NCBI GenBank assembly: GCA_031374725.1
Contig: JANMGT010000021.1
Location: 28,923 to 92,922, forward strand
Direction of reading: 5' to 3'
Origin: Lysobacteraceae bacterium
Lineage (GTDB): Bacteria; Pseudomonadota; Gammaproteobacteria; Xanthomonadales; Xanthomonadaceae
DNA: 64,000 nucleotides
Shown: one piece after another, positions 1,081-30,067 of the stretch
Numbering within the stretch: position 1 is the first letter of the stretch
Layout of the letters: each line of letters opens with the position of its first letter
Program-made: the position numbers and the translations under genes
The notes under the pieces: generated by a model
Database searches by the model: none
Told to the model about the DNA's origin: nothing
What the model saw: only the letters and a program-made list of their open reading frames with translations

Positions 1081-4000
1081 TTACTTCGTCTTCTTACGCA
1101 GCTCGACCTGCGCGGCGGTTTGTCTGGTGCCGTCGTTAAGCTCCATCACGAAACCGAGGCTTTCGATCGCGCGCGCAGCTCCCGCACTGAAATCGCCGGC
1201 GCGGATGCGCATCGAGGCCGGGTTCACCGGCTGGCCGGACCACGCCGTGCCCAGCGAGGTCGCTACTTGATTGAGTTGGTATATTTTCACCATCTGCATG
1301 AATTTGCGGACAGTGGCTTTGGATTTGTTAGCTTCGGCTACCGCCCAATCGATCGGGCTGCCGAAAGCACTGTTCTTGGGATCTAATGCGGAGAACTCTT
1401 GCGGCAAAGTAAGTTCGGCCGTGGTCATTTCCAGCGCAACGAGGGTGCCGCCGGTTTCAGTGAATAGCAAGTCGATGTGCACATCCTTGCTGGTCGGGCC
1501 GTTGACGATTTTGCTGCCTCCAGGTAACGCGATGTCGGCAAGATTGACGTTTGGCAATGCCCCTTTCGGACCGACATCGCGGTCGGAGGTGTGGATCGTC
1601 GCGCCGCCGATCAAGATCCCCGCGACTTGTCTGACTTCGTTCGCACGACCGACGACGACTTCCCATTGACCGTGTTCCAACGGCCGTCCCTGCTGCAGCA
1701 GGGCGACATCGAACCGTAGTTTGTCGACTTTCGCGACATACAGCGTGCGTTGAATCGGGTCTTCGAACTTACCGGTACCAACGCGTGCTTCGAGAAGTTT
1801 CACGAAGGCTTCACCGTTCATACCGGCCAGTGGATTCAAACCGGGAATGATGTCTGTAGAAATATCGGCAAGCAGTTCGGTGACATTCTGCGGCAGAGTG
1901 ACTCTGGGATCGCTAAGGCCGCTGAGCACTCGCAGCCTTTCGGCGCGTTTGTCTTTCGCTGTGCTCTGGAACCACGTCAACCAACCGCCCGGCATCGTTT
2001 GGATTTGGCGCAAAAGCCCGCGTGTTGCGCGTAGATCCATGTCGGCCGGCAGTTCCAGCCCCCTTGCCTTCAGGTCGCGGATCCCATTGATAAGGATCGC
2101 GCTATTTTTAGGCATCAGATCGTCGGCAATGAGATATTTCGCGCCGGAATAGACCTTCGGGCTGTTCGAAATCTCGTGGTAATCCGCGAAGAGTTTCGGC
2201 AACGTCTTCGGATCGGTCGTCAAGAACAAGCGATGCATCGCGCTGTAAGGAATGCCGTTCTCGAGCCTGACCGCATCGGCCACGCCTCGCGCCGCATCGA
2301 TCGACCAGCCCGGATTGATCGACGATGCATGGGTGACGAATAACGACAGCGCCGCCAATACCGTGTGGTCCGGATATTCCAGCGGAAGCTTGGCTTCCAG
2401 TTCCGGATTAATCCGCGCCAGCGTATCGCGCATGCTGGTCAGTTCGCTGCCGCTCAGATGCGTCGTGCGTTCCAATGCGGTGGCGGTGGCGGTCGTGGGT
2501 GCGTCGCTCTTGCCGGCATGCAGCAAGCGCGGCGATGCCACCGGCGCGCCGGAAAGCAAGAAACGCGTGCGCCCCATCGGGTCGGTGATCCGCCGCAGGC
2601 TCGACGTGCCTTCGACCTTGAAGCCTTTCTCGGTGTAGCGCGTGACCAATGCATCGACCTTCGCGGTCGACTTCGATGGGTCGTAAACATAGGTATTGCT
2701 ATCGCCGACGCGGGTAAGTTCGATCACCGATTCCGGTGCAGGCAGCGCCTTGACGACCGGGTCGGCAGCGGTCGGTACCACGCTGAGCGGGAAGCTCGCC
2801 GCCTTCGCGTCGGCGGTCGCCGAGGCCGACATTTTCTCGATCGCAGCGAAGTCGGTGGCGGAGATCACGCCGCCGTCTTTGAGCACTTGTGCTACCGCGC
2901 GGGCTTCGTCGATCAACCGGCTGCGTTCGGTTCGGATCGCCTCGAAATCAGCCTTGCTCAACGTGCCCGTATCGACTTTCTGGCGCAGCGTCTGATACAA
3001 GGCTTCGTTCGCGCTGTTGAGGCTCTCCAACCTGGTATTTGCGGCGGCTTCTAACTTGGGTTTAGCGATCGCTTGGAACCCATGGTGCATACCTGCAATC
3101 AATAGATAGGTGACTGCGGTCTGCGTGAGGAAGGACGCGACATCCGGCGGCCATTGTCCGGTTTCGATGCGCCCCATCGTCGCTGACACCGCTGCGACGC
3201 CGGTGAAGCCGATGAGGTGACCCATCAGCAGTTGCCGCACCGGGCTGCCGCCTGCCAGCGGCTCGGCGAGTTTGCCGACGCCCTTGAGCGCGCCCATGAA
3301 CGCAAGATTGGTGGCCGCCGATTTCACCGCGCCCATGCCAGTGATTTCCTTGCCGAGCAGGATCCGTTGCATGGTCAGCTCGGATGCGGTGAACACGCCG
3401 ACCTCGAACAGGGTAGACACCGATGCGATCGTGCGCGCGGTCCGCGCCAGGGCAATGGTTTCGGAGATCGCGGCCATGCGCACCGCCAGCGCCGCGCCTT
3501 CGGTGACGAGCGCGGCGATCAAAGTGATCGCAATATTCACGAGAAGATCGAGTTTGGCCCGATCTTTGATCTTCTCGAGAACGGTGTTCAGCGACTGCTC
3601 GTAGCCGGCGGTTTTTGCCATGAAACCGTCGTAATCGAGTGTTTGCCAGTATTTCGCCAATTCTGTGCGCATGCCGACGAGCGTGCCGGTCATGCTTTCG
3701 CGGAACGATTTGGAGCCGACATCGGCCTTGACCATTACTTGATGGATGCTGAGATTGCTGGCGTACAGCATGAAGATCGCGGAACGGAAGCCGAAGAGCG
3801 AGGTCGCTTTCGACAACCGCGACGCTTCGAGCAAATCGTTCGCTCCCGGCATCATTTCGGCACTCTCCGGAACACGTGCCGTCACCGTGAATTGCTGGGT
3901 TCCGAAGGGCGATGCGTAGGCGCCGAATGTATTCGAGACGAGTTTGAACCCGAGATTACTGTCGAGCCGTGGCACCGAGTCCTCAAGCGTGCTGCGCATC

Positions 4001-5961
4001 TCGAAAAAGAACGATTCGTCCAGGCCATTGTTGCCGGGATAGGCTTTGTTGCCTTGCTCGAACCATTTCAGATAGCTTTCATAACTCGTGCGGGTACGCT
4101 CGAATTTTCGTTTAGCGATCACTAGATCGAACTGCTCGAATTTCAGATCGACCATGTCGAGCTGGGCTTGATAGCCGGCGGCTAAGCCGTTAGACGCCGA
4201 ACCGAAGGTCGAGCTGGTGATCGATAGCCATGTTTCGATGTATTCGTGGCGCAGGTCGAACAAGGCACCGCGTTCGTCGGTGTTCTTCGATGCGTCGATC
4301 CCGAGTAAATCGTCGAGTGCGACGGCGTTCGCATGCAGGATTTGCGTGCGCTCTTGGATCTTCGCGCCCGCATCCGCAGCGATGGTCATCGCGTTGGCCA
4401 TATCCTGAAGGCCGGCGAGTCGTGCCGCAGGTGAGTAGGCTAGGTGCGCGTGCTCGGTTTCCTCGCGATTCTCGGCGCTGTAAATACGCTTGGTCTCCTT
4501 CCCCTGCGTATCGACCTCCTTCAGATCGCCCTTCTGATTCAGACCGGCGACGATTCCGGTCAATCGCTTCATATCCGCCTCTTCCCACTGGTCGTAGATC
4601 GGGCCGAGGCGTACCGCTCGCTCTAATTGCTCGGCCTCGCTACGAATAATTTGCAACGCTGAAAAGATACGCGGGGTGGTCGATGCCATGCCGAGCGCAC
4701 CGAACGCTTCCCAACCGTTTTCGCGCGCCATCTTTCGCAGCGCGGCGCAGTTGGCCTTGTGCTTCTGCCCTTCCGGCGTCGCTTCCATCTCCAGCAAATC
4801 GGCGACGATTCGCGCGGCCAGATTGGCTTGAAGCGCATCATTCCCAGTAATTTTTCGCTGTAGATACGCGATGCACCATTTTCCGTCTCCTTGATGCAAC
4901 CAGCGTTGGTACAAGCCCTGCGCCATGCCGCTCCCCATTTCGCCGAGGCTGTGATCGGCGAAAAACGCGCGGGCATACAGCAGAAAATCGTAGACACGAT
5001 ACGCATCGACGCTCAACCACTCTTGTAACGCGCTTGTCGCAAAATTATGGAGATCGAAGTCCTTGACTGGGTCGCCCATCAGCAGTTGCACGAGTTTTTT
5101 CGTGGCGTCGGCGTTCGCCGGGCCGGCATTGACCGCAAAGTCGACGATGATCTCGACCGCCGCTAAGCGTTGTGCTCCGTCGGTGTGCAGCTCCAGCATC
5201 TTGATGGCTGTCGCCAAGGCATCCTGATCGTTGGTCGTGACGATATGGGTCTTAGACGCTACGCGCTTGGGATCGTCGTACAACGTGTGGCGCCCCGCGA
5301 ACGCCGAAACGCGCGGGCGTCGACCGGCGAGCACGGCCGCCGCCGCGCGGTCGGCTTGCCATTCGGCCATCTCTGAGTTTGGCATCGCGGGCAATGCGTC
5401 GCCGACGTTGCCGCCGCGATATTGCGCGATATGCGCGAATTCGTGGGCGATGGTCGCGCGTCCTTCGCGCGTGTTCGGGGCGAAGACGCCGTGAGCGAAT
5501 CCGATCTCATCTCCGCTTGCGTATGCGCGTGCGCCCGCAGCGCCTGAGCGCTGGGCGGCGAAAGCGTCGGTGCGTAGGCGAACGCCACCGAAATCGCCAC
5601 CGAAACTCGCCGCCATCGATTGCTTTATCGTCGGCGCTTCGCGCGGCCCCGACGGCCGCGCACTGTCGTCGTCCGCAGGCGGGCCACTCGACGACCCACT
5701 CGGCGGCACGCTCGGCGGTATGCGCTGCGGAGTCGCGATTGAAGCGGGCGGCTGCGGCGACAGAAGCGGATTGCCCGTCGGCGATAGTTGCCCGAGCAAT
5801 GCCAGCATTCCGCTATTGCCGAGCCGCTGCGCCATCGTACTGCCGGTCGATTCGCCGCCCGCATGCTCGGCGCCCGAAGCATCGGCTTTGGTGCGCTCGG
5901 TTCTAGCCGAGGATTTATCGTCGGCAGAACGATCTGATCGCGCGCGGCCGTCGCCGCTCAC
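1081..5961 (-). CDS. Large DUF4157 (eCIS core domain) protein, 1626 aa; candidate cargo/effector with hydrophobic segment and nuclease-like C-terminus
   Basis: N-terminal FGGDFGGVRLRTD...ARAYASGDEIGF...IAHEFAHIAQ (DUF4157 HExxH); hydrophobic helices at about 3070-3555; C-terminal E...HIDLLF...LEMT. The GTG start overlaps the upstream TGA (GTGA). Confidence 0.8.
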   Translation of the reverse strand: MSGDGRARSDRSADDKSSARTERTKADASGAEHAGGESTGSTMAQRLGNSGMLALLGQLSPTGNPLLSPQPPASIATPQRIPPSVPPSGSSSGPPADDDSARPSGPREAPTIKQSMAASFGGDFGGVRLRTDAFAAQRSGAAGARAYASGDEIGFAHGVFAPNTREGRATIAHEFAHIAQYRGGNVGDALPAMPNSEMAEWQADRAAAAVLAGRRPRVSAFAGRHTLYDDPKRVASKTHIVTTNDQDALATAIKMLELHTDGAQRLAAVEIIVDFAVNAGPANADATKKLVQLLMGDPVKDFDLHNFATSALQEWLSVDAYRVYDFLLYARAFFADHSLGEMGSGMAQGLYQRWLHQGDGKWCIAYLQRKITGNDALQANLAARIVADLLEMEATPEGQKHKANCAALRKMARENGWEAFGALGMASTTPRIFSALQIIRSEAEQLERAVRLGPIYDQWEEADMKRLTGIVAGLNQKGDLKEVDTQGKETKRIYSAENREETEHAHLAYSPAARLAGLQDMANAMTIAADAGAKIQERTQILHANAVALDDLLGIDASKNTDERGALFDLRHEYIETWLSITSSTFGSASNGLAAGYQAQLDMVDLKFEQFDLVIAKRKFERTRTSYESYLKWFEQGNKAYPGNNGLDESFFFEMRSTLEDSVPRLDSNLGFKLVSNTFGAYASPFGTQQFTVTARVPESAEMMPGANDLLEASRLSKATSLFGFRSAIFMLYASNLSIHQVMVKADVGSKSFRESMTGTLVGMRTELAKYWQTLDYDGFMAKTAGYEQSLNTVLEKIKDRAKLDLLVNIAITLIAALVTEGAALAVRMAAISETIALARTARTIASVSTLFEVGVFTASELTMQRILLGKEITGMGAVKSAATNLAFMGALKGVGKLAEPLAGGSPVRQLLMGHLIGFTGVAAVSATMGRIETGQWPPDVASFLTQTAVTYLLIAGMHHGFQAIAKPKLEAAANTRLESLNSANEALYQTLRQKVDTGTLSKADFEAIRTERSRLIDEARAVAQVLKDGGVISATDFAAIEKMSASATADAKAASFPLSVVPTAADPVVKALPAPESVIELTRVGDSNTYVYDPSKSTAKVDALVTRYTEKGFKVEGTSSLRRITDPMGRTRFLLSGAPVASPRLLHAGKSDAPTTATATALERTTHLSGSELTSMRDTLARINPELEAKLPLEYPDHTVLAALSLFVTHASSINPGWSIDAARGVADAVRLENGIPYSAMHRLFLTTDPKTLPKLFADYHEISNSPKVYSGAKYLIADDLMPKNSAILINGIRDLKARGLELPADMDLRATRGLLRQIQTMPGGWLTWFQSTAKDKRAERLRVLSGLSDPRVTLPQNVTELLADISTDIIPGLNPLAGMNGEAFVKLLEARVGTGKFEDPIQRTLYVAKVDKLRFDVALLQQGRPLEHGQWEVVVGRANEVRQVAGILIGGATIHTSDRDVGPKGALPNVNLADIALPGGSKIVNGPTSKDVHIDLLFTETGGTLVALEMTTAELTLPQEFSALDPKNSAFGSPIDWAVAEANKSKATVRKFMQMVKIYQLNQVATSLGTAWSGQPVNPASMRIRAGDFSAGAARAIESLGFVMELNDGTRQTAAQVELRKKTK

Positions 5962-6506: not shown

Positions 6507-6512
6507 CGAATA

Positions 6513-7151: not shown

Positions 7152-8801
7152 TCACGGCGTCGGCAGCGGCAGGAAAGACCTCGGCGGAGTTAGCGGCGAG
7201 AGCGGTATAGAAACGGGTGCGCGCGGCATGCCCAGTCCGATCAAGTGCGGCGTTGGACTGAATCGCCGACGGACGGCATACGAGTAAATGCCGGACATGA
7301 CTTGTTCCAGTACTGTTAACGTCTGTCGATCTGAAGCGGTCAAGCCGGCGCGATCGCTGGGCAGAAAGACGCCGCTGAAATCGAAGACGTAGCGATCGAC
7401 CATATTGCTGTTGATCGAAGGACTCAGTGTCGGAGGGGAATACACTAAAACGCCACCACGCGGCATCGCCAGAATTTGTTGTGTCGCTTGCGCTTGTCTG
7501 AAGACTTCCGTTTCCGAGCGCACCGTCACCTCTTCCACCAGCCATCGCGCTGTTGTATCGAGTTCTGCAGATGTGATCTGCGCCGTGCTCGCACGCCTAC
7601 CGTTCACGCTTTGCGCGAGCGCGTCCAAATGCAAACGCACATTCGCGATTTGAGCGGCATAGCGAGTGAGATTGAGGGTCCCTGCGGCACCGGACGGACC
7701 GGTGCGTCCGACCGCTCTGACGTTCAATGCGGATGTCGGCCGATTGATCAACCAGCTCGCCATATGCATCGACTCATGATACAGCGTCAGGGCGATATCG
7801 TCCGCGGTCGGGCATTTGCGGATGAACAGCTCGATCTGCGCATCGGTCATATTGCCTGCCGCATGATGAAACAGTCCATTTGGTCGCAGAGGATCTGGAT
7901 CGTCGCTCAAGATGAGGGTCAAATTCAGCGTGTTCGTACCGATCGTGTGCTGGATCGGACCGCCGCCGGTGATGTTGCCCTGGGCATCCTTCCATCGCAG
8001 ATTGCCTGCCATCGCGGTAAGGATCGGTTGCACCGTGCTTGCTAGCGTTTCGTTGTTGACCAGGTTACCGCCGATCGACGCGATCGCGGTATTGACCAAG
8101 CCTCGATAGGTCGCTTGGCTGACAGAAAAAGCAGGTGGCGTTGTACCGATCGCTGGTACCGTCTGCCGCTGGATTTGATATGGAGCCGGGGATAATCCAT
8201 GCGCGCGACGCCCACTCTGACTCTGTTGCAGCACATGCGCGACTTCATGGGATAAGAGGCGCTCTCCCTGCGCGCTGTCGGGAGACGGCGCGGCGCGTCC
8301 GAGAAATATGTCACTGCCCAGCGTCCATGCGGATGCATTCAAAGCGGCCGACGCATCGGCGACGGTATCGCCGCGATGCAAGCGCACATCGCTCAAATCA
8401 GTGCCCGCTCGCGTTTGCAATGTCTCGCGTAACGATGTTCGGAGCGGGCTACCGCTACCCCATTGCGCTCGCAGCATCGGGCGCCATGGGCTCTGCGCGA
8501 GTGGGACGTTGATGTCCGCTATCGCCATCGGTAACTCTTCGCGTACTACATGGGCATCGTGCGCAGCGGACCAGCGCTCGGCTTCTTGTTCATAGGCGCT
8601 ATCGGGCGCGCCGACATCGGGAACGCGCGCTGCGGCCGCACTGCCGAATGCCTGATCTAGGAGCATTATCCTGTGTCGGTTGCTAGTCGAACCAACGCTC
8701 GAAAACGTCTCGAACCGACTATCGGAATGAGATGCGGTCGCAGCGCGCTGTGACGTGCTGGATTTGTGCGAAGTGGACGATTTGTCGCTAATCTGGCGCA
8801 T
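7152..8801 (-). CDS. DUF4157 protein with a second HExxH (putative zincin metallopeptidase effector)
   Basis: DLSDVRLHRG...ASAWTLGSDIFLG...LSHEVAHVLQQ (DUF4157), then TLYHESMHM with a downstream EE. Start codon uncertain. Confidence 0.8.
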   Translation of the reverse strand: MRQISDKSSTSHKSSTSQRAATASHSDSRFETFSSVGSTSNRHRIMLLDQAFGSAAAARVPDVGAPDSAYEQEAERWSAAHDAHVVREELPMAIADINVPLAQSPWRPMLRAQWGSGSPLRTSLRETLQTRAGTDLSDVRLHRGDTVADASAALNASAWTLGSDIFLGRAAPSPDSAQGERLLSHEVAHVLQQSQSGRRAHGLSPAPYQIQRQTVPAIGTTPPAFSVSQATYRGLVNTAIASIGGNLVNNETLASTVQPILTAMAGNLRWKDAQGNITGGGPIQHTIGTNTLNLTLILSDDPDPLRPNGLFHHAAGNMTDAQIELFIRKCPTADDIALTLYHESMHMASWLINRPTSALNVRAVGRTGPSGAAGTLNLTRYAAQIANVRLHLDALAQSVNGRRASTAQITSAELDTTARWLVEEVTVRSETEVFRQAQATQQILAMPRGGVLVYSPPTLSPSINSNMVDRYVFDFSGVFLPSDRAGLTASDRQTLTVLEQVMSGIYSYAVRRRFSPTPHLIGLGMPRAPVSIPLSPLTPPRSFLPLPTP

Positions 8802-8878: not shown

Positions 8879-10318
8879 TCAGCCCTTGCTTCCTTTGGCA
8901 TTGCTTCCTTTGGTATTGCCCCCTTTACGATCCGTTCTTTTGGCCTTAGACGTCTTATCGGTCGCATTATCAAGGCTAGCTGTCGCGGCTACTGATGCTT
9001 CTTTCGGCTGCGATTTCTTGACAGCCGTTTTAACGGTCGTTGTTTTCTTCGATTGGATTTTCTTCGGCGTCCCAACTCGCTCGCCGGCTTTCCCGCTTGC
9101 CGATGAAGCACCGAGGGTTTTCGCTGCGACTTTCTGTGCTTTGGGTGCGGATTCTGCGGTTTTCACTATCGCTGCCCCGATCACCGGCCCGACAGCGACA
9201 ATGCGCTCCGGCGCGCGCAGGTGCACGATCTCCGCTTCCAGCGCTTCCAGTCTGGACATCGGGATATTCGTCGTCTGGTTAGTTTGCGCAGTGCGGATCA
9301 TGTCCAGATCCGTGCGCAGTTTAACGAGCTGCGCATCTTTCTCGGCGGTGTTCTTGCGCAAGATCGCCAGCTCGTTGCGCATCTTCGATAATTCCTCGGC
9401 CTGCGCTTGGGTTTCTTTCGAGCCATCGCCGAGCATTTGCCCGGTCGTCTGCGAGTTTTCCTTGAGCCGCTCCATGTCCGCACGGATGCTGTCGATATCG
9501 CGCATCTGCGCTTTCATCGTTTGCATGTCGCTATCGATGGTGGCGACTTTCTCGGCATCGATGCCAGCGGCTTTCGGACGCGGCGTCCGCGTGTAGTACT
9601 TGACCACGCCATTTTCTTCGTACAGCGTCACCCGATCGCCGGCATTCAGCACCAAGGGATAGTCTCTGAGATTAATCAGATTATCCTTGCCGACGACGCT
9701 AGCTTGTTTGACTTCGGTGACTTGGATGTTTTGCATCGCCAAGGTCTTCTCGGCCTGAAGCGGGGTTTGATTCACGATCTGACTATCGCTGGTCGCCGAC
9801 GGTCTGATCGGTTTGACGTTGAAGCTCGACAGCGATTTTTCGCCGATCGTGCCCAACAGCTTACCCATGGTTTTTGACTTGTCCTTGCCCTGCTCCCAGA
9901 CACCGCGAAAATCCGATTGCCCCCACCAGTTGAGCGCCTTCAAGGCCTGCAGACCTCCGATACGATCGACGCCTTTGTTCTTGATCGTCGGCATTTGCAG
10001 CTCAAGCGTCACCGTGGTGGTGCCGCGCTCAACATTCATCATCGGCGTTTCGAAGGTATTCAGCATCTCCCGTTCGCCGATAAACGCCTTGAAGAACACG
10101 TCCGGCGAACGATCAGGCGCGTAATCGCCAAAATACGCTGTTTGAAAACCGATCGTGAATCGGCCGTTGGCGTCGGTCGTGGCAACGCCGAGCATGTCGT
10201 GATAGCGGGTGTCGCGATCCCAGGCTTCCACTTTTACCCCTTGAATGCCGGCGCGGCTCACACGGTCGACGACCGTCCCTTGGATCACGTATTCGTAGCG
10301 TTGGTCGGTGCTAATCAT
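8879..10318 (-). CDS. eCIS accessory protein: transthyretin/carboxypeptidase-regulatory-like N-domain, coiled coil, Lys-rich tail
   Basis: IQGTVVD...GVKVEAWDRD...LGVATTDANGRFTI beta-sandwich motif; heptad region; K/A/T/S-rich C-terminus; RBS AAGGAG. Confidence 0.75.
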   Translation of the reverse strand: MISTDQRYEYVIQGTVVDRVSRAGIQGVKVEAWDRDTRYHDMLGVATTDANGRFTIGFQTAYFGDYAPDRSPDVFFKAFIGEREMLNTFETPMMNVERGTTTVTLELQMPTIKNKGVDRIGGLQALKALNWWGQSDFRGVWEQGKDKSKTMGKLLGTIGEKSLSSFNVKPIRPSATSDSQIVNQTPLQAEKTLAMQNIQVTEVKQASVVGKDNLINLRDYPLVLNAGDRVTLYEENGVVKYYTRTPRPKAAGIDAEKVATIDSDMQTMKAQMRDIDSIRADMERLKENSQTTGQMLGDGSKETQAQAEELSKMRNELAILRKNTAEKDAQLVKLRTDLDMIRTAQTNQTTNIPMSRLEALEAEIVHLRAPERIVAVGPVIGAAIVKTAESAPKAQKVAAKTLGASSASGKAGERVGTPKKIQSKKTTTVKTAVKKSQPKEASVAATASLDNATDKTSKAKRTDRKGGNTKGSNAKGSKG

Positions 10319-10330
10319 GGCGCGATCTCC

Positions 10331-13300
10331 TTACGGAATCATTTTGAGGCAGGCGATCTGGGCGAAACCGCGCTTGATCAGCGGTATCAACGGCACGGCG
10401 GACAGCCAATAGCCCCAGGTTTTGAACGACTTCGCATAGTGGCGCTTGCTGAAGTTGCAAATATGGAACACCTGGTTGTTCTTGATTTCGATCGTGCCCA
10501 GATACACCTTGTCGTCGTCGGTGCATTCGTGGCATTCGACCAAGAATTTGTCGCAGAAGCAGTCTTTCAAGTATTGGCCGAACACGCCGAACAGGTCGGT
10601 GTAGGCGCGCAGCATCTCTTCACGATAATCGGCGAGAATCACCGGCGGTTCCATCGTGAACGGCGGCGCGGTCGACACGACGCGATCCAGATCGACGGCG
10701 CTCACCGTGTTCGTGATCAAATTCAGCGCGTAGAACATGTTCGCCTTCGGGCTGGTCGCCAGCGACACGGGCATCACTTGAAGCGGAATCCGCGCCGTGT
10801 TCAGCAATGTGTTCGTGCCGGTATCGAAACGTTGCGCGCGATAGCTGTTCATATCCGCCACGATCAGCGTATTCACCGCTGGCATCGCTGCGAGACGATA
10901 GACGCTTTGACTCGGCAGCAGGGTCTGCTGCGATTGGGCGAGACTGGTGATCGTGGTCGGGAAGCGCAGCAATACGCTTTGCGCGCCGGTCTCGATCGTC
11001 AAATACGCTCTGCCGTTCACGGCGACGAGGTCATTGGCGAGCATATTGCCGCCGCCGACCGGGATTTGCGCCGCAAGCGCGACGGGAGTGGCGAGCACGA
11101 TCCGCTGGATACCGTTGAAAATCTGATCCGTTATCGGCGTATTGCCGCTGTTGGAAATGGCGATGGCGTTCGCGCCATCGCTGTCGATGGCGAGCAGACC
11201 GATCGCGTTGAAATTCCAGATGGGGCTCGGCACCAAGGGAATCGCCATCGGGTTGAAGCGATAGAGTCCGCGTTTTGCCGCAGTATCGCTGCGGCCGACT
11301 GCAAACAAGGTACCGGCGTGCGCCCTATGCGTGTCTAAACGCACGAATTGGATATCGCAGACGATGGTGGAGGCTCCCCAGGTGATCGTCGGCGCTGTAT
11401 CAGCCGTGGCCGCTGGCGTCACGAACGCGGTCGCGAACACCGAATCGACGCCGCTGCTCTTGGTGATCGAGCCCACGGCGTAGACCCGACTGCCACCCTC
11501 GTTAAAAGCGATATCTTGCAGCTCAAGATTGTTGCCCCCTGGGAAATCCAGCACCGCCACCACCCTGTTGCTGTTGACGTCGTAGACCTGGATGCGATGC
11601 CCACGTCCATAGGTGTAGAGATAACGGCCGCTCGGGTCGATCTTCATCTTCGTGTGCATCAGGAACATGCCGAACATGGTCTCGATGCCGGTCGGCACGG
11701 TGAACGGGTAGGCCGGGAATTGCTGCAAATGATCGAACATCGCGCAATAGGTCTTGCTCGCCAGCAATTCGCGGATCTCCTCGTAGAGCGTTTTCAGCAG
11801 ATCGTGCTCGGCCTTGGAGACAAAGACATACGGGCCGCTGGCGGAGTTGATGATCTGCCACAGCAAGTTGATCAGCGAGATCATACGCTTGTGCTGATCA
11901 GACAGCGGCAGCGTGGTGTCCGGGAACGGTAACACCAATTTCTTCAAGGATTCGATCAACGAAACGATGCAATTTTCCCAAAAATCCTTGAGAAGCGATC
12001 CTTCGAGCACCGAGTCCCAGAATCCTTGGGTGACATGCGGCTCCAGATGCATGGAAATGCCGGTCGCGGATTTTTCGATCCACAGATTGACCTTGCCCTT
12101 GCCGCCAGAAACCAGGTTCTGAGCGATCGCATTCCTCACCAACGGGTAAGCGCGATCGCCGGAAGCATGCAACAAATCGCCATCGCAATCCAAAGCATAA
12201 CCCTTGGTCAACACGATTTTATCGCGGTCCTTGCTGCAGCGCAGTTTCAGACCGCAAATCACGCCCATGCCGTGCAGCAGGCGATTATGCAGGCGCATAT
12301 CGCCGGTGAGGTCGGCCATGCACAGTGCGTCGATGGCTTCTTGCACAGTGCCGACTTTGTCCCAACCGGGAATATCGGTATACGTGGCGCACGCGCCGGA
12401 GTCGTAGGCGATGCGGCTGGCGTCAAGCTCGGTCAACGATGCGAACCGCGGGCGCTGATCTTCGCAGAACACTAATTCCGGCGAAGCGGCATCGACCCGC
12501 GCACGATGGATTGCCGATAACGGGTAGTAGTGGTGACGGATGCCGCGCGCAGGCGCTTCGATCAGACTTTCGACGCTGCGGTCGATGGCGCGGGTCGCGA
12601 ACAGCCAGTAGTCGCTTGGGCGAAGATCGCTGCCGCCGAACTCGATCACCACGCCGTCGGCAAGAACGATGTCGCCCGGCACGCAAGCGCCCACCGCATC
12701 CCAACGCACGATCTTGGCATGCTGGGCGATGCGTAGCGTCCGCGGCAGCGCGGCATGGAACGGGATTTCTAGTGGATCGACAACGCTCGGATCTTCCCAA
12801 CTGATGCGCCGCGTTTGCAGGTTGATCGTGGTGATCTTGCGCAGTTCGCCGCGGAGATGATGGCTGTGGCCGACCCGATCTTCATAAAGGCCGGTCACTT
12901 TTTCGATCATATCGTCGGAAAGTTCGATCAGATCGCCGATCGCGTAAATCTCAGGCTTTTCGACCAACGCAGATGTCGTCGCGGCCAAAGCGTCTTCGAT
13001 CAAGCCGGTCGCAGCGGTAGCGTTCTCGCGCGACCATTTGAAACGTGCGGTGGTTGCGGCGAGCGCGGCGCCGACATTGCCAGCTGCGTGGATCTCGATT
13101 CGGAACAAGCGATTGCTCTCGCCCAAATACGGCCCTTCGACCTTCGGCTCGCACGGGTCGGCGCAGGGGTCGATCGCCGCTGCCGGTTTGTCCTTGGTCG
13201 TTAGCAAACCGCCGCCGATGCCGCTGAGGCCAGCAAACGCGGCGTTCGGTGGCTGCGCAGCGCTGGCGAACGCCACTTCGACGCCTTTGATCAAACGTAC

Positions 13301-14641
13301 TTGCGCCATCAACTGCGTGCGCGTGCAGGTATCGACCCCGTCCAGCGCTACTTCGCGTAAGTCGGGATGTTCGACGTAGCCGATCGGACGTTCCCAGATA
13401 TCAAGGTAGGCGCAATCGATGCGGCGGTTGCCGGCTGCTACCGGCGCTAGCGCTGCGGGATCGGGCGACGGCAGATCGCGCTGGGTCCAGTAGGTGCCAT
13501 GCCGCTCCTTCACCGCTTGCATGCCGTCGGCATAGAACCGCCCTGCCCCTTCCACCGTGCCGTCGCCGCCCATGACCACGAGATCGCGCGCGGGGTCGGC
13601 TTCCAACAGCACCGGGCCGAACCGATACGTCGCTGCGGCGCTGAGGCCGCTGTAGATCAGCGAGGTAATGCCGCCCCAGTTGAACGCGCCGACCTGCGGC
13701 GCGGAAAATGCGTGGATCGCCCACGCACCGACGGTCGTGACGACGGCGCCAGACAGCGTGATGCTGTTTGCGACCGTCGCGTCGTCTTTCAATACGATCG
13801 ACAGCGGCGCTGCAGAGGGCGTGCGTTGCACGGCAACCAACAGACGGCGCGCGCGCGATGCATCGACAGGCTCGGGAAAGGTGTAGGCGACGCTGGTCGC
13901 TTGCGTGGCCTGTATCGATTTTCCGCCCCAGACGCGCTGGTCGTCGTCGTTAGCCAATTGCGCCGTGGCCGGCAGCACGCTGTAACGATCGCCCAGATCG
14001 GTGCGAACGATGACCGTGCGCAGCGGTAGGTCGGCTTTGATGAAATCGAAGGCGTAACGCTTGGTCGAAGTGGAATCCAGGCCGGTGAATCCGTATTCGA
14101 CGATCGCGTTTTGCGCGAAGCCGGCAGGCCAAGCGCCGGGCACGGCGCGCATCAGGGTCCAGTCGTTGGCGGCAGCCGCGACCACGCTAAGCGTGAACGC
14201 GTGGGTCGCGCTGGCATCTTTCAGATAAAACCCCATGCCAGCAACGCTGTCGGCCTTCACTGCGAACAGCACTTCGCCAACGCCGCTGAGATCGAGCGGC
14301 TTTTCGGGACGTTTGGCGATCGCCGAAGCGCCGCGCGAGACCAGACTGCCATCGCCGATGCGGTGATCGATGTAGTCCACGAAGATCGCCGCAGTCGCTG
14401 GCGTACTGGTCCAGCCGCGCTTGGCTTCCATGCGATCGATCAGTACATGGGTGTCGATGCGGAAACCGTCGTTGGGGCTGCCGGTATGCACCGCATTGCC
14501 GGCGAGGCGCTGGATCATCCGCAGCACCAACTCGTTTTGCTCGTTGAAGTCGGACTCCAGCGGCAACCGTCCCATCTGGTGGAATACACCGACGAAATGG
14601 TTGAGTTCGTCGAACGACACTTTGCCTATTTCGCTATTCAT
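10331..14641 (-). CDS. DUF6519-like tail fibre/receptor-binding protein (1436 aa) with C-terminal beta-propeller
   Basis: The true start is MNSEIGKVSF at 14641 (ATGA overlap with the upstream stop), not 15253. Motifs: HQMGRLPLESDFNEQ, AGRFYADG, YLDIWER..., YLGESNRLFRIEIH, FKWSRENA; YncE-like repeats near the C-terminus. Confidence 0.78.
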   Translation of the reverse strand: MNSEIGKVSFDELNHFVGVFHQMGRLPLESDFNEQNELVLRMIQRLAGNAVHTGSPNDGFRIDTHVLIDRMEAKRGWTSTPATAAIFVDYIDHRIGDGSLVSRGASAIAKRPEKPLDLSGVGEVLFAVKADSVAGMGFYLKDASATHAFTLSVVAAAANDWTLMRAVPGAWPAGFAQNAIVEYGFTGLDSTSTKRYAFDFIKADLPLRTVIVRTDLGDRYSVLPATAQLANDDDQRVWGGKSIQATQATSVAYTFPEPVDASRARRLLVAVQRTPSAAPLSIVLKDDATVANSITLSGAVVTTVGAWAIHAFSAPQVGAFNWGGITSLIYSGLSAAATYRFGPVLLEADPARDLVVMGGDGTVEGAGRFYADGMQAVKERHGTYWTQRDLPSPDPAALAPVAAGNRRIDCAYLDIWERPIGYVEHPDLREVALDGVDTCTRTQLMAQVRLIKGVEVAFASAAQPPNAAFAGLSGIGGGLLTTKDKPAAAIDPCADPCEPKVEGPYLGESNRLFRIEIHAAGNVGAALAATTARFKWSRENATAATGLIEDALAATTSALVEKPEIYAIGDLIELSDDMIEKVTGLYEDRVGHSHHLRGELRKITTINLQTRRISWEDPSVVDPLEIPFHAALPRTLRIAQHAKIVRWDAVGACVPGDIVLADGVVIEFGGSDLRPSDYWLFATRAIDRSVESLIEAPARGIRHHYYPLSAIHRARVDAASPELVFCEDQRPRFASLTELDASRIAYDSGACATYTDIPGWDKVGTVQEAIDALCMADLTGDMRLHNRLLHGMGVICGLKLRCSKDRDKIVLTKGYALDCDGDLLHASGDRAYPLVRNAIAQNLVSGGKGKVNLWIEKSATGISMHLEPHVTQGFWDSVLEGSLLKDFWENCIVSLIESLKKLVLPFPDTTLPLSDQHKRMISLINLLWQIINSASGPYVFVSKAEHDLLKTLYEEIRELLASKTYCAMFDHLQQFPAYPFTVPTGIETMFGMFLMHTKMKIDPSGRYLYTYGRGHRIQVYDVNSNRVVAVLDFPGGNNLELQDIAFNEGGSRVYAVGSITKSSGVDSVFATAFVTPAATADTAPTITWGASTIVCDIQFVRLDTHRAHAGTLFAVGRSDTAAKRGLYRFNPMAIPLVPSPIWNFNAIGLLAIDSDGANAIAISNSGNTPITDQIFNGIQRIVLATPVALAAQIPVGGGNMLANDLVAVNGRAYLTIETGAQSVLLRFPTTITSLAQSQQTLLPSQSVYRLAAMPAVNTLIVADMNSYRAQRFDTGTNTLLNTARIPLQVMPVSLATSPKANMFYALNLITNTVSAVDLDRVVSTAPPFTMEPPVILADYREEMLRAYTDLFGVFGQYLKDCFCDKFLVECHECTDDDKVYLGTIEIKNNQVFHICNFSKRHYAKSFKTWGYWLSAVPLIPLIKRGFAQIACLKMIP

Positions 14642-17313
14642 AACGGCGAATTTCCTTTGAAGCGCGGCCGCGGGAGAACCCGGACCTGGATGGGAGTCAA
14701 TCCTGCGGGAATCGATTCGGCCAAGCGAAGGCCGATGTTCTGGCTGCGCCACGGCAGGCCGAAGCCATAGAAGGCGCCGATTTCGCCGCCCTCTTCGCCG
14801 CCGCGCAGCAGCGCAGGTGCGCTGTTGTGGTGTAGCACCATGTAGCCGGCGTCGCCCCATGTGGTGGAGACGAAGATCGGTGTTGCCGAGGTGCAGCGGA
14901 ACGCCGCAGCGATATAGCTGCTTGGAATACGCGAAAAACGCACGCAGGACGCATTCGTCAGTGCGAGTTGGCCATAGCACACGCTGTTCGACACGCGGCC
15001 GGCGTTCGCCGAAACGTTGCCGAACGCTGTGCAACGATCCAGCGCGATCTCGCCGTTTGCGAACTGCAATGCGTGACCCGCAGTGGGCTGTTCGACCGTT
15101 GCCGATGCGTGCTGCAGGATGCTGTCTTCGGCCGCAAAGCGCCCGCTCGGCGCGGCGATGGCGACCGCACCGGCGATGCACGCGCGCATCGTGGTATCGC
15201 AGCGCGCGGTTTGCGCGATCTGAAGCGTCGCCGTCGTCGGCTGCAGCGTGCAATACCGCAGCGCGAGCGTCGCGACGTTGCCGCCGATCTGCAGCACACC
15301 GCCAGAAAACGTCAGTCCATCGAGAGTGAGCGCGGCGATCGTGGAATTCTGTACGCGCAACACCTGCGGCGCCAACGCGGGTTTCACGATATATGGGCTT
15401 TGTAGCGCTGCGGCTTGAATCGTCAACCCGCCAGGGAAATTTCTAGTGTCGATCGTCAACGCTTCGTCGTAGACCGCGCTGTCGAGGATTTCGATGACCA
15501 CCAGCATCGCTGCGCCGTCGGGCGCAGCGGCGATCGCCGCCTGCAGCGTACTGAACTGGGCATCGCGCGTGCGCGCGACGGTAAGCAGGGCCGTCGGCAG
15601 ATCGACGCGCGCATGCGGACCGGCGCCGATGGCATGGCCGGCGGCGTAGCGGTAATCCGCACTCAGCACGCCGGCCGGCGCTTCGCCTGCGGGAAACGCG
15701 ATCCGCCCGCGTTCGGCGTCGATCGCGATTTCGCCCGGTTTAAGCGCTGGCGACAGCGGACGATCCCAGCAGCACAGCGAACGCGCGATCGGTCGGCGCC
15801 AGCGAAGCGCGCCTGAGGGATTACCGGGTCGTATGCGCCGCTGGCCTTCGGACTGTCGCGCCAAATGCTGCGGCAAGTAAGCGCCGAACAGCGAACTGTC
15901 GGGATTGCGATTCGGCGGCCCATCCAGATGATTGCCGCGCGCGAAATAACTCGAACCGTCTTCGGCGATATAGAAATAGTGTTCGGCACCGGCCGCCACG
16001 CCGACGATCGCCGGCAGGTAGATCTGCAGGGCGATGCCGCGATTATTTCGCAGAATGGCTTCTGTTTGCGGGAAATTCGTCGCGACCGCGCCCTCGTTGA
16101 TCACCCGAACCAGCAATACGGGATGATGGTATTCACCGCTGTTGGGCTCGTATGCGGCAACGCCGACGGTGTAGCTGAAATCCGGGGTCGCGCCATGGAG
16201 TTTCAGCCGGCCCTGCGGATTGCGCAGTTGCAACTGATTGGCCAGCGGCTGACCCGAGGAGTACGTCACCGGCGTCAACACGCTGTTGATCATGCCGAAC
16301 ACCGCGCCCAAACGAACGGCGTCCAAACGAAAGCGCGCCGTCGCGCCGAACGCTGCGGGGTCGCCGGGGATCATGCCGCGGGTATCGGCCAAATCGCCAT
16401 AATCCAGCTCCGGAACGCGCGACGCGGTGCCAAGCGCGGGAGCACCGATCAGCGGAATTCCGTCTTCGTACAGAGAGAATCCGAGCGGCGATGCGACATA
16501 CGCAGTGGGATGCGCGCGCAAATCCGCATTGCGGATCGGCGTGTCGTCGGCGTGCGGGCGACAAATGTCTGCGCCGTTCGCGCCCGAGCGCGCCTGAATC
16601 TCTTCGCGCAGTGCATCGGTTGCGCCGCCTGCATGCAGGGCCGTGTCCACACCGAGCGAATGGAAGGTGTAACGTCCACCGCCGATCGCCTTCGGCTGGA
16701 CCGCGGTCAGCGGAAACGATCGCAATGGCCATGAGAACACCGCGACGTTGTTGGTGCGATGCCAGCCTTGGCGTTGATCGGCATCGCGCAGATCGCAGAG
16801 CGCGCGCCCGGTCGAAAACGGCGTGCGCAGCGCAGCGACCGCTTCGCTATCGCGGAGATCGATCGCGAACCTCGCCTCGTGTTTGATGTGATTTAAATTC
16901 TGCAGCCACGCCGTGCGCTCGAACATTTCAACCGCATGCGTGCCGATACCGCCGATGTCGTTGGCGACGCCTTCCAAGCCAGCCAGCGTGCCCTTTTGCC
17001 GCCGCCAACGCAGCGTGTTCTTGACGTCGTCGCGATTGCGGGTCGCGAAGCCGCTCAATAGCGCGCCGCTGAACAGGACGTCGCTGCCGACGAGATCGGC
17101 GAGATAGGCGATGGTCCAATCCTGCGCCGAATCGATGAAGTGATCGGCGTAGTGCTGCTCAATGGTCTTGCGCACGCGCCACAATTCATCGGCGTAAAGT
17201 TCGATCAACGCATACAGCCGGCCTTCGCTGTCGCGGCTGCGATAGACGCCCGGCAGCCAGCGCCAAAGCTGCTGCGCCATCTCGGTGCGCGTGGGGGTCG
17301 GACGGTCGATCAT
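14638..17313 (-). CDS. P2 gpI-like phage tail/baseplate protein with C-terminal beta-helix-like region
   Basis: LWRWLPGVYRSRD...YADHFIDSAQDWTIAYLADLVG...RRQKGTLAGLE is typical of eCIS tail proteins; ATGA overlaps at both ends. Confidence 0.8.
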   Translation of the reverse strand: MIDRPTPTRTEMAQQLWRWLPGVYRSRDSEGRLYALIELYADELWRVRKTIEQHYADHFIDSAQDWTIAYLADLVGSDVLFSGALLSGFATRNRDDVKNTLRWRRQKGTLAGLEGVANDIGGIGTHAVEMFERTAWLQNLNHIKHEARFAIDLRDSEAVAALRTPFSTGRALCDLRDADQRQGWHRTNNVAVFSWPLRSFPLTAVQPKAIGGGRYTFHSLGVDTALHAGGATDALREEIQARSGANGADICRPHADDTPIRNADLRAHPTAYVASPLGFSLYEDGIPLIGAPALGTASRVPELDYGDLADTRGMIPGDPAAFGATARFRLDAVRLGAVFGMINSVLTPVTYSSGQPLANQLQLRNPQGRLKLHGATPDFSYTVGVAAYEPNSGEYHHPVLLVRVINEGAVATNFPQTEAILRNNRGIALQIYLPAIVGVAAGAEHYFYIAEDGSSYFARGNHLDGPPNRNPDSSLFGAYLPQHLARQSEGQRRIRPGNPSGALRWRRPIARSLCCWDRPLSPALKPGEIAIDAERGRIAFPAGEAPAGVLSADYRYAAGHAIGAGPHARVDLPTALLTVARTRDAQFSTLQAAIAAAPDGAAMLVVIEILDSAVYDEALTIDTRNFPGGLTIQAAALQSPYIVKPALAPQVLRVQNSTIAALTLDGLTFSGGVLQIGGNVATLALRYCTLQPTTATLQIAQTARCDTTMRACIAGAVAIAAPSGRFAAEDSILQHASATVEQPTAGHALQFANGEIALDRCTAFGNVSANAGRVSNSVCYGQLALTNASCVRFSRIPSSYIAAAFRCTSATPIFVSTTWGDAGYMVLHHNSAPALLRGGEEGGEIGAFYGFGLPWRSQNIGLRLAESIPAGLTPIQVRVLPRPRFKGNSPL

Positions 17314-22114: not shown

Positions 22115-22493
22115 GGTTCGTGCCCTCCTGCGGCGAGAGTTGGTACACGACGCGTCGCCGTTCGAGGTCGCGGCTCTTGGTATAGACGACTTCGATCTGC
22201 AGCGTTTCTTCGACGTTATCGACGTGAACGGCGTTGATCATCACCAGGTCGCCGAGAAACGTTTGCAGCGACTTGGCCACCGTGAATTCGGTGGCTGCGG
22301 CGAGCACATCGTTGTTGCCGCGGAACAGTAGGTCGCGTGCGCCGCAGCCGAAACTGGGCAGCATCACCCGCTCGCCCGGCGAGGTAAACAACAACTGCTC
22401 GATACGGCCGCGGATCGCGCCGTCGAGATCGGTCGTCGCTGCGGCGCCGGCGCCGGTCAGCGAAAACGGAAACTTGAGGTAGCGTTCGTTCAT
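22107..22493 (-). CDS. GPW/gp25 family baseplate wedge protein
   Basis: IRGRIEQLLFTSPGERVMLPSFGCG gp25 signature. Confidence 0.92.
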   Translation of the reverse strand: MNERYLKFPFSLTGAGAAATTDLDGAIRGRIEQLLFTSPGERVMLPSFGCGARDLLFRGNNDVLAAATEFTVAKSLQTFLGDLVMINAVHVDNVEETLQIEVVYTKSRDLERRRVVYQLSPQEGTNRG

Positions 22494-22503
22494 CGCGATG
22501 CTC

Positions 22504-22779
22504 TCAGCTGATGTCGCCGTTGCTGCCGCTCAAGGTCACGACGACATTCGGAACGCTATTTCCGAATTTGCCCTGCGTGACGCGAACGTCGAGGTTGGTT
22601 TTGAGATGATTGATAACGCCGGTAGCGATCGCGATGAAGGTCTTGCGACGGTTCTCCGCGGCATCGGGCGTCTCTTCGTCGAGATCGATCAAGCCCTGCG
22701 CGATCATCGCCAGTTCAATTGCCTGCGCCATGCTGCCCGCTTCGAGCGCGTCGCCGTTGAGCGTGCCTGGTTTCAGCAT
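22504..22779 (-). CDS. Small hypothetical protein in the baseplate module
   Basis: 91-aa ORF with RBS GGAG, tightly packed between gp25 and the Pro-rich gene. Confidence 0.7.
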   Translation of the reverse strand: MLKPGTLNGDALEAGSMAQAIELAMIAQGLIDLDEETPDAAENRRKTFIAIATGVINHLKTNLDVRVTQGKFGNSVPNVVVTLSGSNGDIS

Positions 22780-22807
22780 GTCGTTCTCCTTGTCGTCTCT
22801 TGGCGCA

Positions 22808-22849
22808 TTAGCAGGGGCATGTCAGCAGCGGCATGTCAGCAGGGGCATG
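22808..22849. repeat. Three tandem 14-bp copies (minus strand CATGCCCCTGCTGA-like)
   Basis: ttagcaggggcatg / tcagcagcggcatg / tcagcaggggcatg at 22808, 22822 and 22836. Confidence 0.9.
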
Positions 22850-23171
22850 GCGGCAATTTCGGCAGCGCCGGCAACGATGGCAACGGCGGCAAACTCGGAA
22901 TCGGCAGCGGAATCACCAGCGACGGAATCGGCAGCGACGGCAGCGCGGGCAACGCTGGTAACTTCGGTAGCGACGGCAACGACGGCAGTGCGGGCAAGCT
23001 CGGAATCGGCAGCGGAATCACCAGCGAGGGAATCGGCAGCGACGGCAGCGCGGGCAGTGCCGGCAATTTCGGCAGCGACGGCAACGATGGCAGCGGCGGC
23101 AAGCTCGGAATCGGCAGCGGAATCACCAGCGAGGGAATCGGCAGCGAGGGAATGCGACAAACGCAGGTCAT
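22836..23171 (-). CDS. Pro/Leu/Ser-rich tandem-repeat protein with CxC at both ends (111 aa)
   Basis: AGGAG RBS immediately after the spike stop; sequence is MTCVC-(35-aa unit x3)-CPC. Confidence 0.72.
   Translation of the reverse strand: MTCVCRIPSLPIPSLVIPLPIPSLPPLPSLPSLPKLPALPALPSLPIPSLVIPLPIPSLPALPSLPSLPKLPALPALPSLPIPSLVIPLPIPSLPPLPSLPALPKLPPCPC
22839..23150 (-). repeat. 105-bp coding tandem repeat x3
   Basis: Unit PSLPIPSLVIPLPIPSLP[P/A]LPSLP[S/A]LPKLPALPAL; the third copy ends in PPCPC. Confidence 0.92.
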
Positions 23172-23183
23172 GGCGTGTTCTCC

Positions 23184-24146: not shown

Positions 24147-24156
24147 CGTTCGGCCC

Positions 24157-25368: not shown

Positions 25369-25396
25369 GTGGGGTCCTGTCGGTTAGGCGCTGCGC

Positions 25397-26333: not shown

Positions 26334-26347
26334 GTTGCGGGTTCCTG

Positions 26348-27195: not shown

Positions 27196-27207
27196 GGCGG
27201 CGTCCTG

Positions 27208-28560: not shown

Positions 28561-28563
28561 GCG

Positions 28564-29468: not shown

Positions 29469-29483
29469 GCGCTTTTCGGCTCC

Positions 29484-29963: not shown

Positions 29964-30067
29964 GTCGATTGCTCCTCGGTTGCAGATGCGGATGGATGGG
30001 TCCTAGGGTCGTCTGATCGCGCGCCGCTCGCGCATGTGGAACCTTTCCGACGCCCCGACGTTCGATG

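Follow-up and report, generated by a model that had tools for sequence, protein, structure and literature searches.

A DUF4157 protein with a restriction-endonuclease-like C-terminal domain, very probably a cargo toxin, closes an extracellular contractile injection system operon in a Lysobacteraceae bacterium

Extracellular contractile injection systems, or eCISs, are injection machines that resemble phage tails and whose core marker, DUF4157, often lies N-terminal to toxins, with linkers of more than 1000 amino acids (AAs); proteins with an N-terminal DUF4157, then a long linker and then a toxin at the C-terminus recur among eCISs (Geller 2021, PMC8213781). The AlgoCIS cargo proteins Cgo1 (498 AAs) and Cgo2 (1228 AAs) have a disordered N-terminal domain, a DUF4157 domain and a C-terminal domain, and they fill the tube lumen (PMC8894135); the N-terminal domain is required for their loading, DUF4157 is dispensable, and an AAA+ protein has been proposed as the cargo unfolder (bioRxiv 10.64898/2026.05.27.728243). 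The Streptomyces davawensis Tme protein, associated with the contractile injection system (CIS) and its spike complex, has a DUF4157 domain, predicted transmembrane helices and a C-terminal nuclease (PMC11126660). Two DUF4157 proteins were also detected with purified particles of the Anabaena CIS. Here we describe a 1626 AA protein (the target, below) encoded near one end of a 64,000 bp stretch of Lysobacteraceae bacterium DNA (the window; positions 28,923 to 92,922 of contig JANMGT010000021.1, assembly GCA_031374725.1). It is very probably a cargo toxin of the eCIS encoded beside it, and its nearest counterparts in design are AlgoCIS Cgo2 and Streptomyces Tme.

The target gene closes a complete eCIS operon that extends on the minus strand from position 36446 to 1081 of the window, as delineated by Pfam and PHROGs scans and the open reading frame (ORF) map (Table 1). 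A model-made reading of the sequence alone (the original prediction, below) had pointed to eCIS loci by way of DUF4157, and the cap, ATPase, sheath, tube, baseplate and fibre-region genes of this operon bear that out. The target ORF begins with a GTG codon in a GTGA overlap with the stop codon of the preceding ORF. It has 17 full-length homologues that are 42–97% identical to it, and comparison with the 97% identical homologue gives a ratio of nonsynonymous to synonymous substitution rates (dN/dS) of 0.105 for the whole gene, 0.034 for the hydrophobic block and 0.058 for the C-terminal domain; by these measures it is a real gene. The protein consists of a probably disordered N-terminus, a DUF4157 domain, a helical core of ~1200 AAs that includes a hydrophobic block, and a C-terminal domain (the tip), and homologue alignment shows even conservation from AA 250 through the C-terminus. 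Beyond DUF4157 the whole target has no match in Pfam (E≤0.01), PHROGs (E≤0.01) or NCBIfam, and sequence and profile searches of the PDB with the target protein and the queries A1 and A2 found nothing; weak PDB profile matches to DAHP synthase and Sm D3 (E>0.1) were judged to be due to chance.

The N-terminal parts are those expected of an eCIS effector. The first 110 AAs contain 80% disorder-promoting and 12% hydrophobic or aromatic residues, a composition that fits the predicted disorder of this region; its conservation is weak (20–34% identity among homologues). The DUF4157 domain that follows scores 71 bits (cut-off 22; E=9.6e-20) against Pfam PF13699, whose current name is eCIS_core. The target thus has a PF13699 domain with an HExxH motif close to its N-terminus, as do the eCIS-associated toxins (EATs), and the DUF4157-effector architecture proposed for it corresponds to that described by Geller 2021. 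The HEFAH, ANE, HIDLLF and LEMT motifs lie exactly where the original prediction had put them. The target has no signal peptide.

The tip, the last 196 residues, was modeled with AlphaFold2 from an alignment of 14 sequences, and the five models are in agreement (predicted local distance difference test score, pLDDT, 88.9; predicted TM-score, pTM, 0.85). The predicted fold is the alpha-beta-beta-beta-alpha-beta arrangement on which the proposal of a restriction-endonuclease-like tip depended, with elements H38–57, E61–69, E100–107, E113–118, H155–181 and E189–194 in model numbering. In order these are a helix that carries E1442, a strand, a conserved 30-residue insertion between strands 1 and 2 (GPKG...LPNVDL...LPGGxK), a beta-hairpin with D1497 on its first strand and E1511-x-T1513 on its second, a long helix with R1552, K1553, Q1556 and K1559, and a strand-helix-strand-helix end. 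The nearest Foldseek neighbours of the model are indeed PD-(D/E)xK nucleases, with marginal scores (best E-value 1.9e-3, TM-scores 0.29–0.35). The top five PDB matches are all NucS/EndoMS structures (2vld, 5gkj and 5gke; E-values 1.9e-3 to 2e-2, probability 0.72–0.99, TM-score ~0.29), the next are Cas4-like ACE1, SduA, Card1, AdnAB, SfsA, Exo5 and DXO/DXO1, all of the PD-(D/E)xK superfamily, and the BFVD matches are PD-(D/E)XK nucleases, RecB-family exonucleases, Cas4, Mrr and RecU. Individually these scores are weak; nearly all of the top matches in PDB and BFVD belong to the superfamily, and the accord of the two libraries is strong.

The putative active site is marked by conservation. In 52 full-length copies of the tip, E1442, D1497, E1511, P1520, K1553 and Q1556 never vary (100%), and T1513, K1559 and R1552 are present in 96%, 96% and 94% of them, respectively. 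The canonical (D/E)xK of strand 3 is absent, and the position of its lysine is occupied by T1513. The ExT variant of the motif that was originally proposed is therefore present as D...ExT, and is better read as D...ExT plus the invariant K1553 and Q1556 on the following helix. Migration of the lysine to the second core helix is known from Pa4535 (PDB 1y0k), whose motif is PD-EXX-K (Steczkiewicz et al. 2012, PMC3424549). Since the strand-3 lysine is consistently threonine and K1553 on the second core helix is invariant, this known variant fits the tip better, and the predicted active site is better described as one in which K1553 and Q1556 stand in for the strand-3 lysine. By its modeled fold and these residues, the tip may be a metal-dependent nuclease that damages the nucleic acids of the target cell.

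Hydrophobicity was gauged by the Kyte-Doolittle scale alone (19-residue window, threshold 1.6). The cluster of hydrophobic helices originally noted is present at AAs 802–966 and is milder than was claimed: the only segment above 1.6 is AAs 806–832, which peaks at 1.96, AAs 911–929 peak at 1.56, and the other helices of the block are amphipathic. A segment of at least 1.6 (~2.0) is present at the equivalent position in 13/13 family members checked, and the distant members have further peaks. The block is the best-conserved part of the protein (58–89% identity to homologues), has the lowest dN/dS, and is poorly modeled, with pLDDT below 50 over most of it (AAs 822–966) and predicted helices of 28–58 residues. 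High conservation, purifying selection and a poor single-chain model would fit a segment that changes its environment, for example by membrane insertion. Hydrophobic helices accompany a cytoplasm-bound enzyme domain in type VI secretion system (T6SS) prePAAR effectors with transmembrane domains and in the hydrophobic translocation regions of large toxins of bacteria, TcdA/TcdB for example; this is an analogy only. The AlphaFold2 model of AAs 235–1434 has an overall pLDDT of 73, and Foldseek finds only generic HEAT/ARM solenoids for it (E≥0.08); no toxin translocation domain is among the matches, colicin Ia being found only at E ~1 and probability 0.06. Its small alpha/beta domain is strongly conserved throughout the family (invariant columns L1073, P1074, P1076, Y1093, P1095, G1130, R1131 and T1132), and the C-terminal helical domain of the core, AAs 1159–1430, is found by phmmer in nearly all family members and is the constant companion of the tip.

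We suggest, with a probability of roughly 60%, that the target is a cargo: its N-terminus would mediate loading, contraction would eject it, its hydrophobic block would insert into a membrane, and its tip would be toxic as a nuclease. This is the most economical reading of the parallels with AlgoCIS, the Anabaena CIS and Tme and of the pair of short and long DUF4157 proteins in the window, the shorter of which (549 AAs) is a probable second cargo. By analogy with Cgo1 and Cgo2, the hydrophilic, probably disordered N-terminus would be recognised with help from the Afp15-like AAA+ ATPase of the operon, and the protein would be threaded largely unfolded into the tube lumen, followed by DUF4157 as an accessory effector-marker domain. 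Behind this tag lies the ~1200 AA core, conserved across phyla, in which the 165 AA helix block is the best-conserved element. After ejection the block would insert into a membrane of the target cell, and there hold the protein or help its C-terminus across. The tip, with E1442 on helix 1, D1497 and E1511 on strands 2 and 3, respectively, and K1553/Q1556 putatively replacing the strand-3 lysine, would then act on nucleic acids.

Several observations weigh against this reading. No Foldseek E-value for the tip is below 1e-3 and the TM-scores are low, at 0.29–0.35; its strand 3 has a conserved threonine in place of the canonical lysine; and neither the target nor its tip has a sequence-level link to nuclease families in Pfam, NCBIfam, PHROGs or the PDB, the tip alone having no Pfam match even at E≤10 and no PDB profile match. 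Only one segment of the target surpasses the classical transmembrane hydrophobicity threshold. The core is predicted to consist of large globular helical domains of ~175 kDa in total, so that it would have to be unfolded for loading into the lumen. In the fetched sets the tip is found only at the C-terminus of long (~1200–2030 AA) proteins or in short or partial sequences, every long tip protein checked carries parts of the target's core, and no fusion of the tip to Rhs, T6SS or contact-dependent growth inhibition (CDI) proteins was seen there, an uncommon pattern for a polymorphic toxin domain. The homologue contexts inspected show no conserved immunity gene beside the target or its homologues, and two distant homologues occupy the tape-measure slot, which hints at a structural role.

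The tip defines a family whose spread was surveyed with a profile of the C-terminal 232 residues. A search of 1.84 billion representative proteins found 57 proteins, and most of the full-length matches are 1380–1660 AAs long with the domain at the extreme C-terminus. One match, P0049 (2966 AAs, with 16 repeated matches to tip positions 180–230), was rejected as a false positive because it has no phmmer match to pieces of the target and contains long near-identical tandem repeats. The fetched sequences of at least 1150 AAs were classified by phmmer and hidden Markov models (HMMs): 16 have DUF4157 and the tip, 20 have an unrelated N-domain of ~100 AAs and the tip, and three have this N-domain and a different C-terminal module of 255–270 AAs that begins directly after the ANE-bearing helix. 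This P0014-type C-terminal module has no Pfam or PDB match. The alternative N-domain (MPVRVxIPxRxRVD...ALxxAxxRAL...P.FxWxG) replaces the disordered region and DUF4157 in about half of the family (P0014, P0017 and P0029–P0075; for example at 10001–10330 of homologue locus L008); Pfam has no match to it, and none of the six-frame ORFs of the window was hit by an HMM search for it.

The hydrophobic block and the AA 1159–1430 domain are detectable in most proteins of this census, so the conserved unit is the core plus the tip. Judged by these comparisons, the N-terminal module is the one commonly exchanged, and the tip is replaced in one subclade only. The description of the target as a modular toxin thus holds mainly for its N-terminal module; the tip is no free-floating cassette and almost always occurs with the same ~1200 AA core. 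Among the hosts are Lysobacter metagenome-assembled genomes (MAGs), one MAG each of Rhizobacter and Burkholderiaceae, and Mucilaginibacter gynuensis JCM 17705, which is in culture; one host assembly is probably cyanobacterial since a phycobilisome gene adjoins its CIS locus. The M. gynuensis member, P0023 (2030 AAs; 8033–14125 of locus L017), has an extra extension of ~360 AAs beyond the endonuclease-like domain. An eCIS effector that is tagged with DUF4157 and has its toxin domain at the C-terminus is a kind of protein already known; what is new is an undescribed family whose core of ~1200 AAs is conserved, whose tip shows the lysine-on-helix form of the active site, whose N-terminal module alternates between DUF4157 and an unannotated domain, and whose distant members include two in the tape-measure slot.

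These last members bear on the best-surviving alternative, that the family is primarily a lumen-resident, tape-measure-like structural/effector hybrid similar to Tme, held in the tube at the spike or hub and ejected on contraction, with its hydrophobic helices forming a channel in the target membrane, as has been proposed for phage tape-measure proteins, and the DUF4157-bearing Lysobacter version a derived copy in the effector position. We sampled nine homologue loci, and 9/9 are CIS loci. The gene lies at the 3' end in the window and in L001, L004, L006, L009, L012 and L017, upstream of the operon in L005 and L010, and, flanked by the tube gene with a small gene on one side and by the hub/spike genes on the other, in L008 (probably cyanobacterial; P0037, 10001–14197) and L011 (P0029, 2632–7347). 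P0037 and P0029 are distant members with the alternative N-domain, each is the sole long gene in the canonical tape-measure slot, and their body, hydrophobic block and tip are homologous to those of the other members; L010 also has no other long gene between tube and spike. Tme, for which pore formation by the transmembrane helices has been proposed, is a precedent for such a protein. The Tme-like position directly upstream of the baseplate genes holds only for the L008 and L011 homologues, however, and fails for the target.

In the window the tape-measure slot is taken by another gene, which encodes a low-complexity, Ser/Ala/Asn/Asp-rich protein of 450 AAs with no Pfam (CIS_TMP included), PHROGs or NCBIfam match, and in M. 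gynuensis P0023 coexists with a bona fide CIS_TMP protein (PF19268, E=2e-115). An AAA ATPase is also encoded at L017, as is a further DUF4157 protein, which weakly matches Peptidase_M91. The target itself matches neither PF19268 nor any other tape-measure family in Pfam, and no PHROGs family at E≤0.01; its core is predicted as globular solenoid domains rather than one long coiled coil, and the position of the gene varies among the 5' end, the tape-measure slot and the 3' end. The coexistence with CIS_TMP and the filled slot in the window lead us to keep a tape-measure role, on the whole unlikely, as a rival, or an extension, that concerns the branch with the alternative N-domain, and not as our reading of the target gene.

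One such extension is a little less doubtful, yet still rather unlikely: the hydrophobic block, C-terminal helical domain and tip may be a cross-phylum family of ejected CIS lumen proteins that is the tape-measure-slot protein in the L008 and L011 lineages and was elsewhere recruited as tagged cargo, through a swap of the ~100 AA N-domain for a disordered loading sequence plus DUF4157. If so, the Tme concept, a nuclease effector that derives from a tape measure and inserts into membranes, would also apply to CISs of Gram-negative bacteria and cyanobacteria, there with another nuclease fold, and the swap would amount to a natural experiment in the addressing of cargo to the tube.

Less probable again, and in our view improbable, is that the core with its hydrophobic block is itself the pore-forming or membrane-disrupting toxic principle, with a non-catalytic tip that serves in binding, oligomerisation or regulation. 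Conservation and constraint are strongest in the block, the subclade with the unrelated 255–270 AA module keeps the core and dispenses with the tip, strand 3 has no canonical lysine, there is no immunity gene, and non-nuclease members of the PD-(D/E)xK fold exist (PMC3424549). On the other hand, three carboxylates, a lysine and a glutamine that are invariant over very divergent sequences are the signature of an active site and not of a scaffold, the tip has a dN/dS as low as 0.058, and the core model, with colicin Ia at E ~1 and probability 0.06, is unlike known pore-forming toxins. The alternative offered in the original prediction, a membrane anchor, here taken to hold the protein in a membrane of the producing cell (as a CIS anchor or firing adaptor), is very improbable, since for all that the helices are conserved across the family and that membrane-anchored or membrane-triggered CISs are known in Anabaena and Streptomyces, the target has the hallmarks of an effector (a probably disordered N-terminal domain, DUF4157 and a place at the end of the operon) and lacks a signal peptide, its block is only marginally transmembrane-like, and the Anabaena anchors are the baseplate components Cis11 and Cis19, the DUF4157 proteins there being detected with particles and thought to be lumen cargo.

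Small ORFs near the target were considered as its possible partners. The 188 and 182 AA ORFs directly upstream have no family match; as conserved chaperones or immunity proteins they were rejected, since they are kept only in the 97% identical relative and are absent from L001, L004 and L005, and by this comparison they look lineage-specific. A 189 AA ORF at 293–862 was likewise rejected as an immunity gene: it is a spurious, out-of-frame artefact, given the IS66 transposase remnant and the metallophosphatase gene in other frames. These two features downstream of the target show that the eCIS locus ends at a mobile-element scar. The eCIS toxins commonly have no immunity gene (Geller 2021, PMC8213781), and with none conserved here the target cell may be bacterial or eukaryotic.

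The remaining genes of the locus are listed in Table 1. The 549 AA companion has HEVAH in its DUF4157 domain (8235–8249), a second HExxH, HESMH (7764–7778), in its C-terminal part, and a 56% identical orthologue in L004. The DUF6519 protein is listed as a 1640 AA ORF with a TTG start (10331–15253, minus strand) that overlaps the 891 AA ORF (14638–17313, minus strand) by ~600 nt; its true start is probably near 14640, as the cut genes of L006 and L007 still show at least 1436 AAs. Depending on that start, the target is the largest or second-largest ORF of the CIS cluster. Between the spike and gp25-like genes, positions 22851–23147 contain 2.8 copies of a 105 bp tandem repeat (88% matches), which reads as LPxLPSLP-type proline repeats or, in another frame, as an Ala/Asp/Ser repeat (a listed 121 AA ORF). 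A sigma-54 activator gene (37644–38753, minus strand) lies directly upstream of the eCIS operon, and in L004 a HisKA kinase and a sigma-54 response regulator (14775–17238) directly follow the target homologue; these are possible dedicated regulators of the systems. FtsK and RarA genes are among the flanking housekeeping genes of the window, which together with the labels of the homologues indicate a Lysobacter-like gammaproteobacterium.

Table 1. Features of the target protein and of the eCIS locus, in window coordinates
Feature	Residues (AA)	Position	Strand	Basis or remark
Target gene, 1626 AAs plus stop codon	1–1626	1081..5961	-	ORF list and translation; final gene of the eCIS operon
Hydrophilic, probably disordered N-terminal region with GNxxMLALL motif; candidate loading sequence	1–110	5632..5961	-	Composition
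DUF4157/eCIS_core domain	111–184	5410..5631	-	Pfam PF13699
HEFAH motif	173–177	5431–5445	-	In DUF4157
All-helical, solenoid-like part of core with two small beta-hairpins	244–794	3580..5232	-	AlphaFold2, pLDDT mostly 70–94
Hydrophobic/amphipathic helix block	802–966	3064..3558	-	Kyte-Doolittle, conservation, dN/dS
Long helices after the hydrophobic block	967–1054	2800..3063	-	AlphaFold2 H707–764, H769–795, H801–820 (model numbering; +234 = protein)
Small alpha/beta domain (LPAPxSV...YxYxP...GFxV...GRTxF)	1069–1139	2545..2757	-	AlphaFold2 strands and helix
C-terminal helical domain of core	1159–1430	1672..2487	-	AlphaFold2, pLDDT ~80–90
PD-(D/E)xK-like C-terminal domain (tip), last 196 residues	1431–1626	1084..1671	-	AlphaFold2, Foldseek, residue invariance
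ANE motif	1440–1442	1636–1644	-	
HIDLLF motif	1495–1500	1462–1479	-	
LEMT motif	1510–1513	1423–1434	-	
Key residue E1442	1442	1636–1638	-	Invariance over 52 domains
Key residue D1497	1497	1471–1473	-	Invariance over 52 domains
Key residue E1511	1511	1429–1431	-	Invariance over 52 domains
Key residue T1513	1513	1423–1425	-	52 domains
Key residue K1553	1553	1303–1305	-	52 domains
Key residue Q1556	1556	1294–1296	-	52 domains
Metallophosphatase gene		Starts at 536, runs past window edge at base 1	-	Downstream of target
IS66-family transposase remnant		~763–1080	-	Downstream of target
Two small ORFs, 188 and 182 AAs		5958–7079	-	Directly upstream of target; second translationally coupled to target
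Companion DUF4157 protein, 549 AAs		7152..8801	-	Pfam PF13699, E=7e-26
eCIS structural genes		8879..36446	-	Pfam and PHROGs scans, ORF map
Pvc16_N cap protein		35886–36446	-	First in operon order
AAA+ ATPase (Afp15-like)		33634–35889	-	Second in operon order
Sheath		30562–33183	-	After ATPase
Two gp19 tube proteins, then T4_baseplate-like protein		After sheath	-	
450 AA protein in tape-measure slot		27208–28560	-	Between tube/T4_baseplate-like genes and tube initiator
CIS_tube initiator, GPD hub, spike with Phage_base_V		After 450 AA gene	-	
Baseplate wedge and Baseplate_J, 891 AA protein, DUF6519 protein, 479 AA protein		3' part of structural genes	-	

The eCISs are being engineered for protein delivery, and the mode of action is known for very few of the cargoes that they naturally carry. 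Should the family prove to be merely another DUF4157 nuclease toxin, the gain would be one new entry in the toxin-domain catalogue. The family provides a predicted active site (E1442, D1497, E1511, K1553 and Q1556) in a toxin domain outside Pfam, and a cultured carrier of a homologue, M. gynuensis JCM 17705, from which particles should be purifiable. That one core is found with either of two different N-terminal modules is relevant to the routing of cargo to the tube, and the conserved hydrophobic block bears on how a needle-injected cargo moves an enzyme domain across a further membrane.

In comparison with known systems, the tip shares with NucS/EndoMS (2vld, 5gkj and 5gke) and the PD-(D/E)xK superfamily the alpha-beta-beta-beta-alpha-beta core topology, the placement of a Glu on helix 1 and of Asp and Glu on strands 2 and 3, respectively, and the 14-residue spacing across the hairpin, and with Pa4535 the lysine on the second core helix; it differs from them in having no sequence similarity, a TM-score of only ~0.3 and the 30-residue insertion between strands 1 and 2. 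Like the EATs (Geller et al. 2021, Danov et al. 2024), among which EAT9 (restriction endonuclease) and EAT16 (Holliday-junction-resolvase-like) are of the nuclease type, the target is encoded at the 3' end of its operon, has an N-terminal DUF4157, a linker that in EATs may exceed 1000 AAs and a putative C-terminal toxin domain, and has no immunity gene, as is frequent among them. Unlike that of the EATs, its "linker" is not a variable spacer and is instead a conserved, folded ~1200 AA core that travels with the tip across phyla, and its tip matches no Pfam family.

Cgo2 (ALPR1_12690 of Algoriphagus machipongonensis) has a disordered N-terminal region, DUF4157 and a long C-terminal part, a layout like that of the target with its probably disordered N-terminus, and in both cases the eCIS operon that encodes a short and a long DUF4157 protein also includes an AAA+ ATPase gene. 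The shorter proteins are alike as well: Cgo1, whose C-terminal domain is a predicted metalloprotease, and the 549 AA protein of the window each have an extra HExxH in the C-terminal part. Cgo2 differs in that it has no detectable sequence similarity to the target outside DUF4157, is absent from the homologue and tip-profile matches, and has no described hydrophobic block or nuclease-like tip, and its loading into the lumen is experimental whereas that of the target is inferred. Tme (BN159_7576, 2247 AAs) resembles the target in its N-terminal DUF4157, predicted transmembrane helices and C-terminal nuclease or nuclease-like domain, and it is the largest ORF of its CIS cluster as the target is the largest or second-largest of its own. 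The Tme nuclease is EndA-like with a catalytic His, whereas the target tip has a restriction-endonuclease fold in the model; Tme is ~70% disordered, whereas the target core is predicted to be folded; and tme lies directly upstream of the baseplate genes, whereas the target gene lies at the 3' end of its operon.

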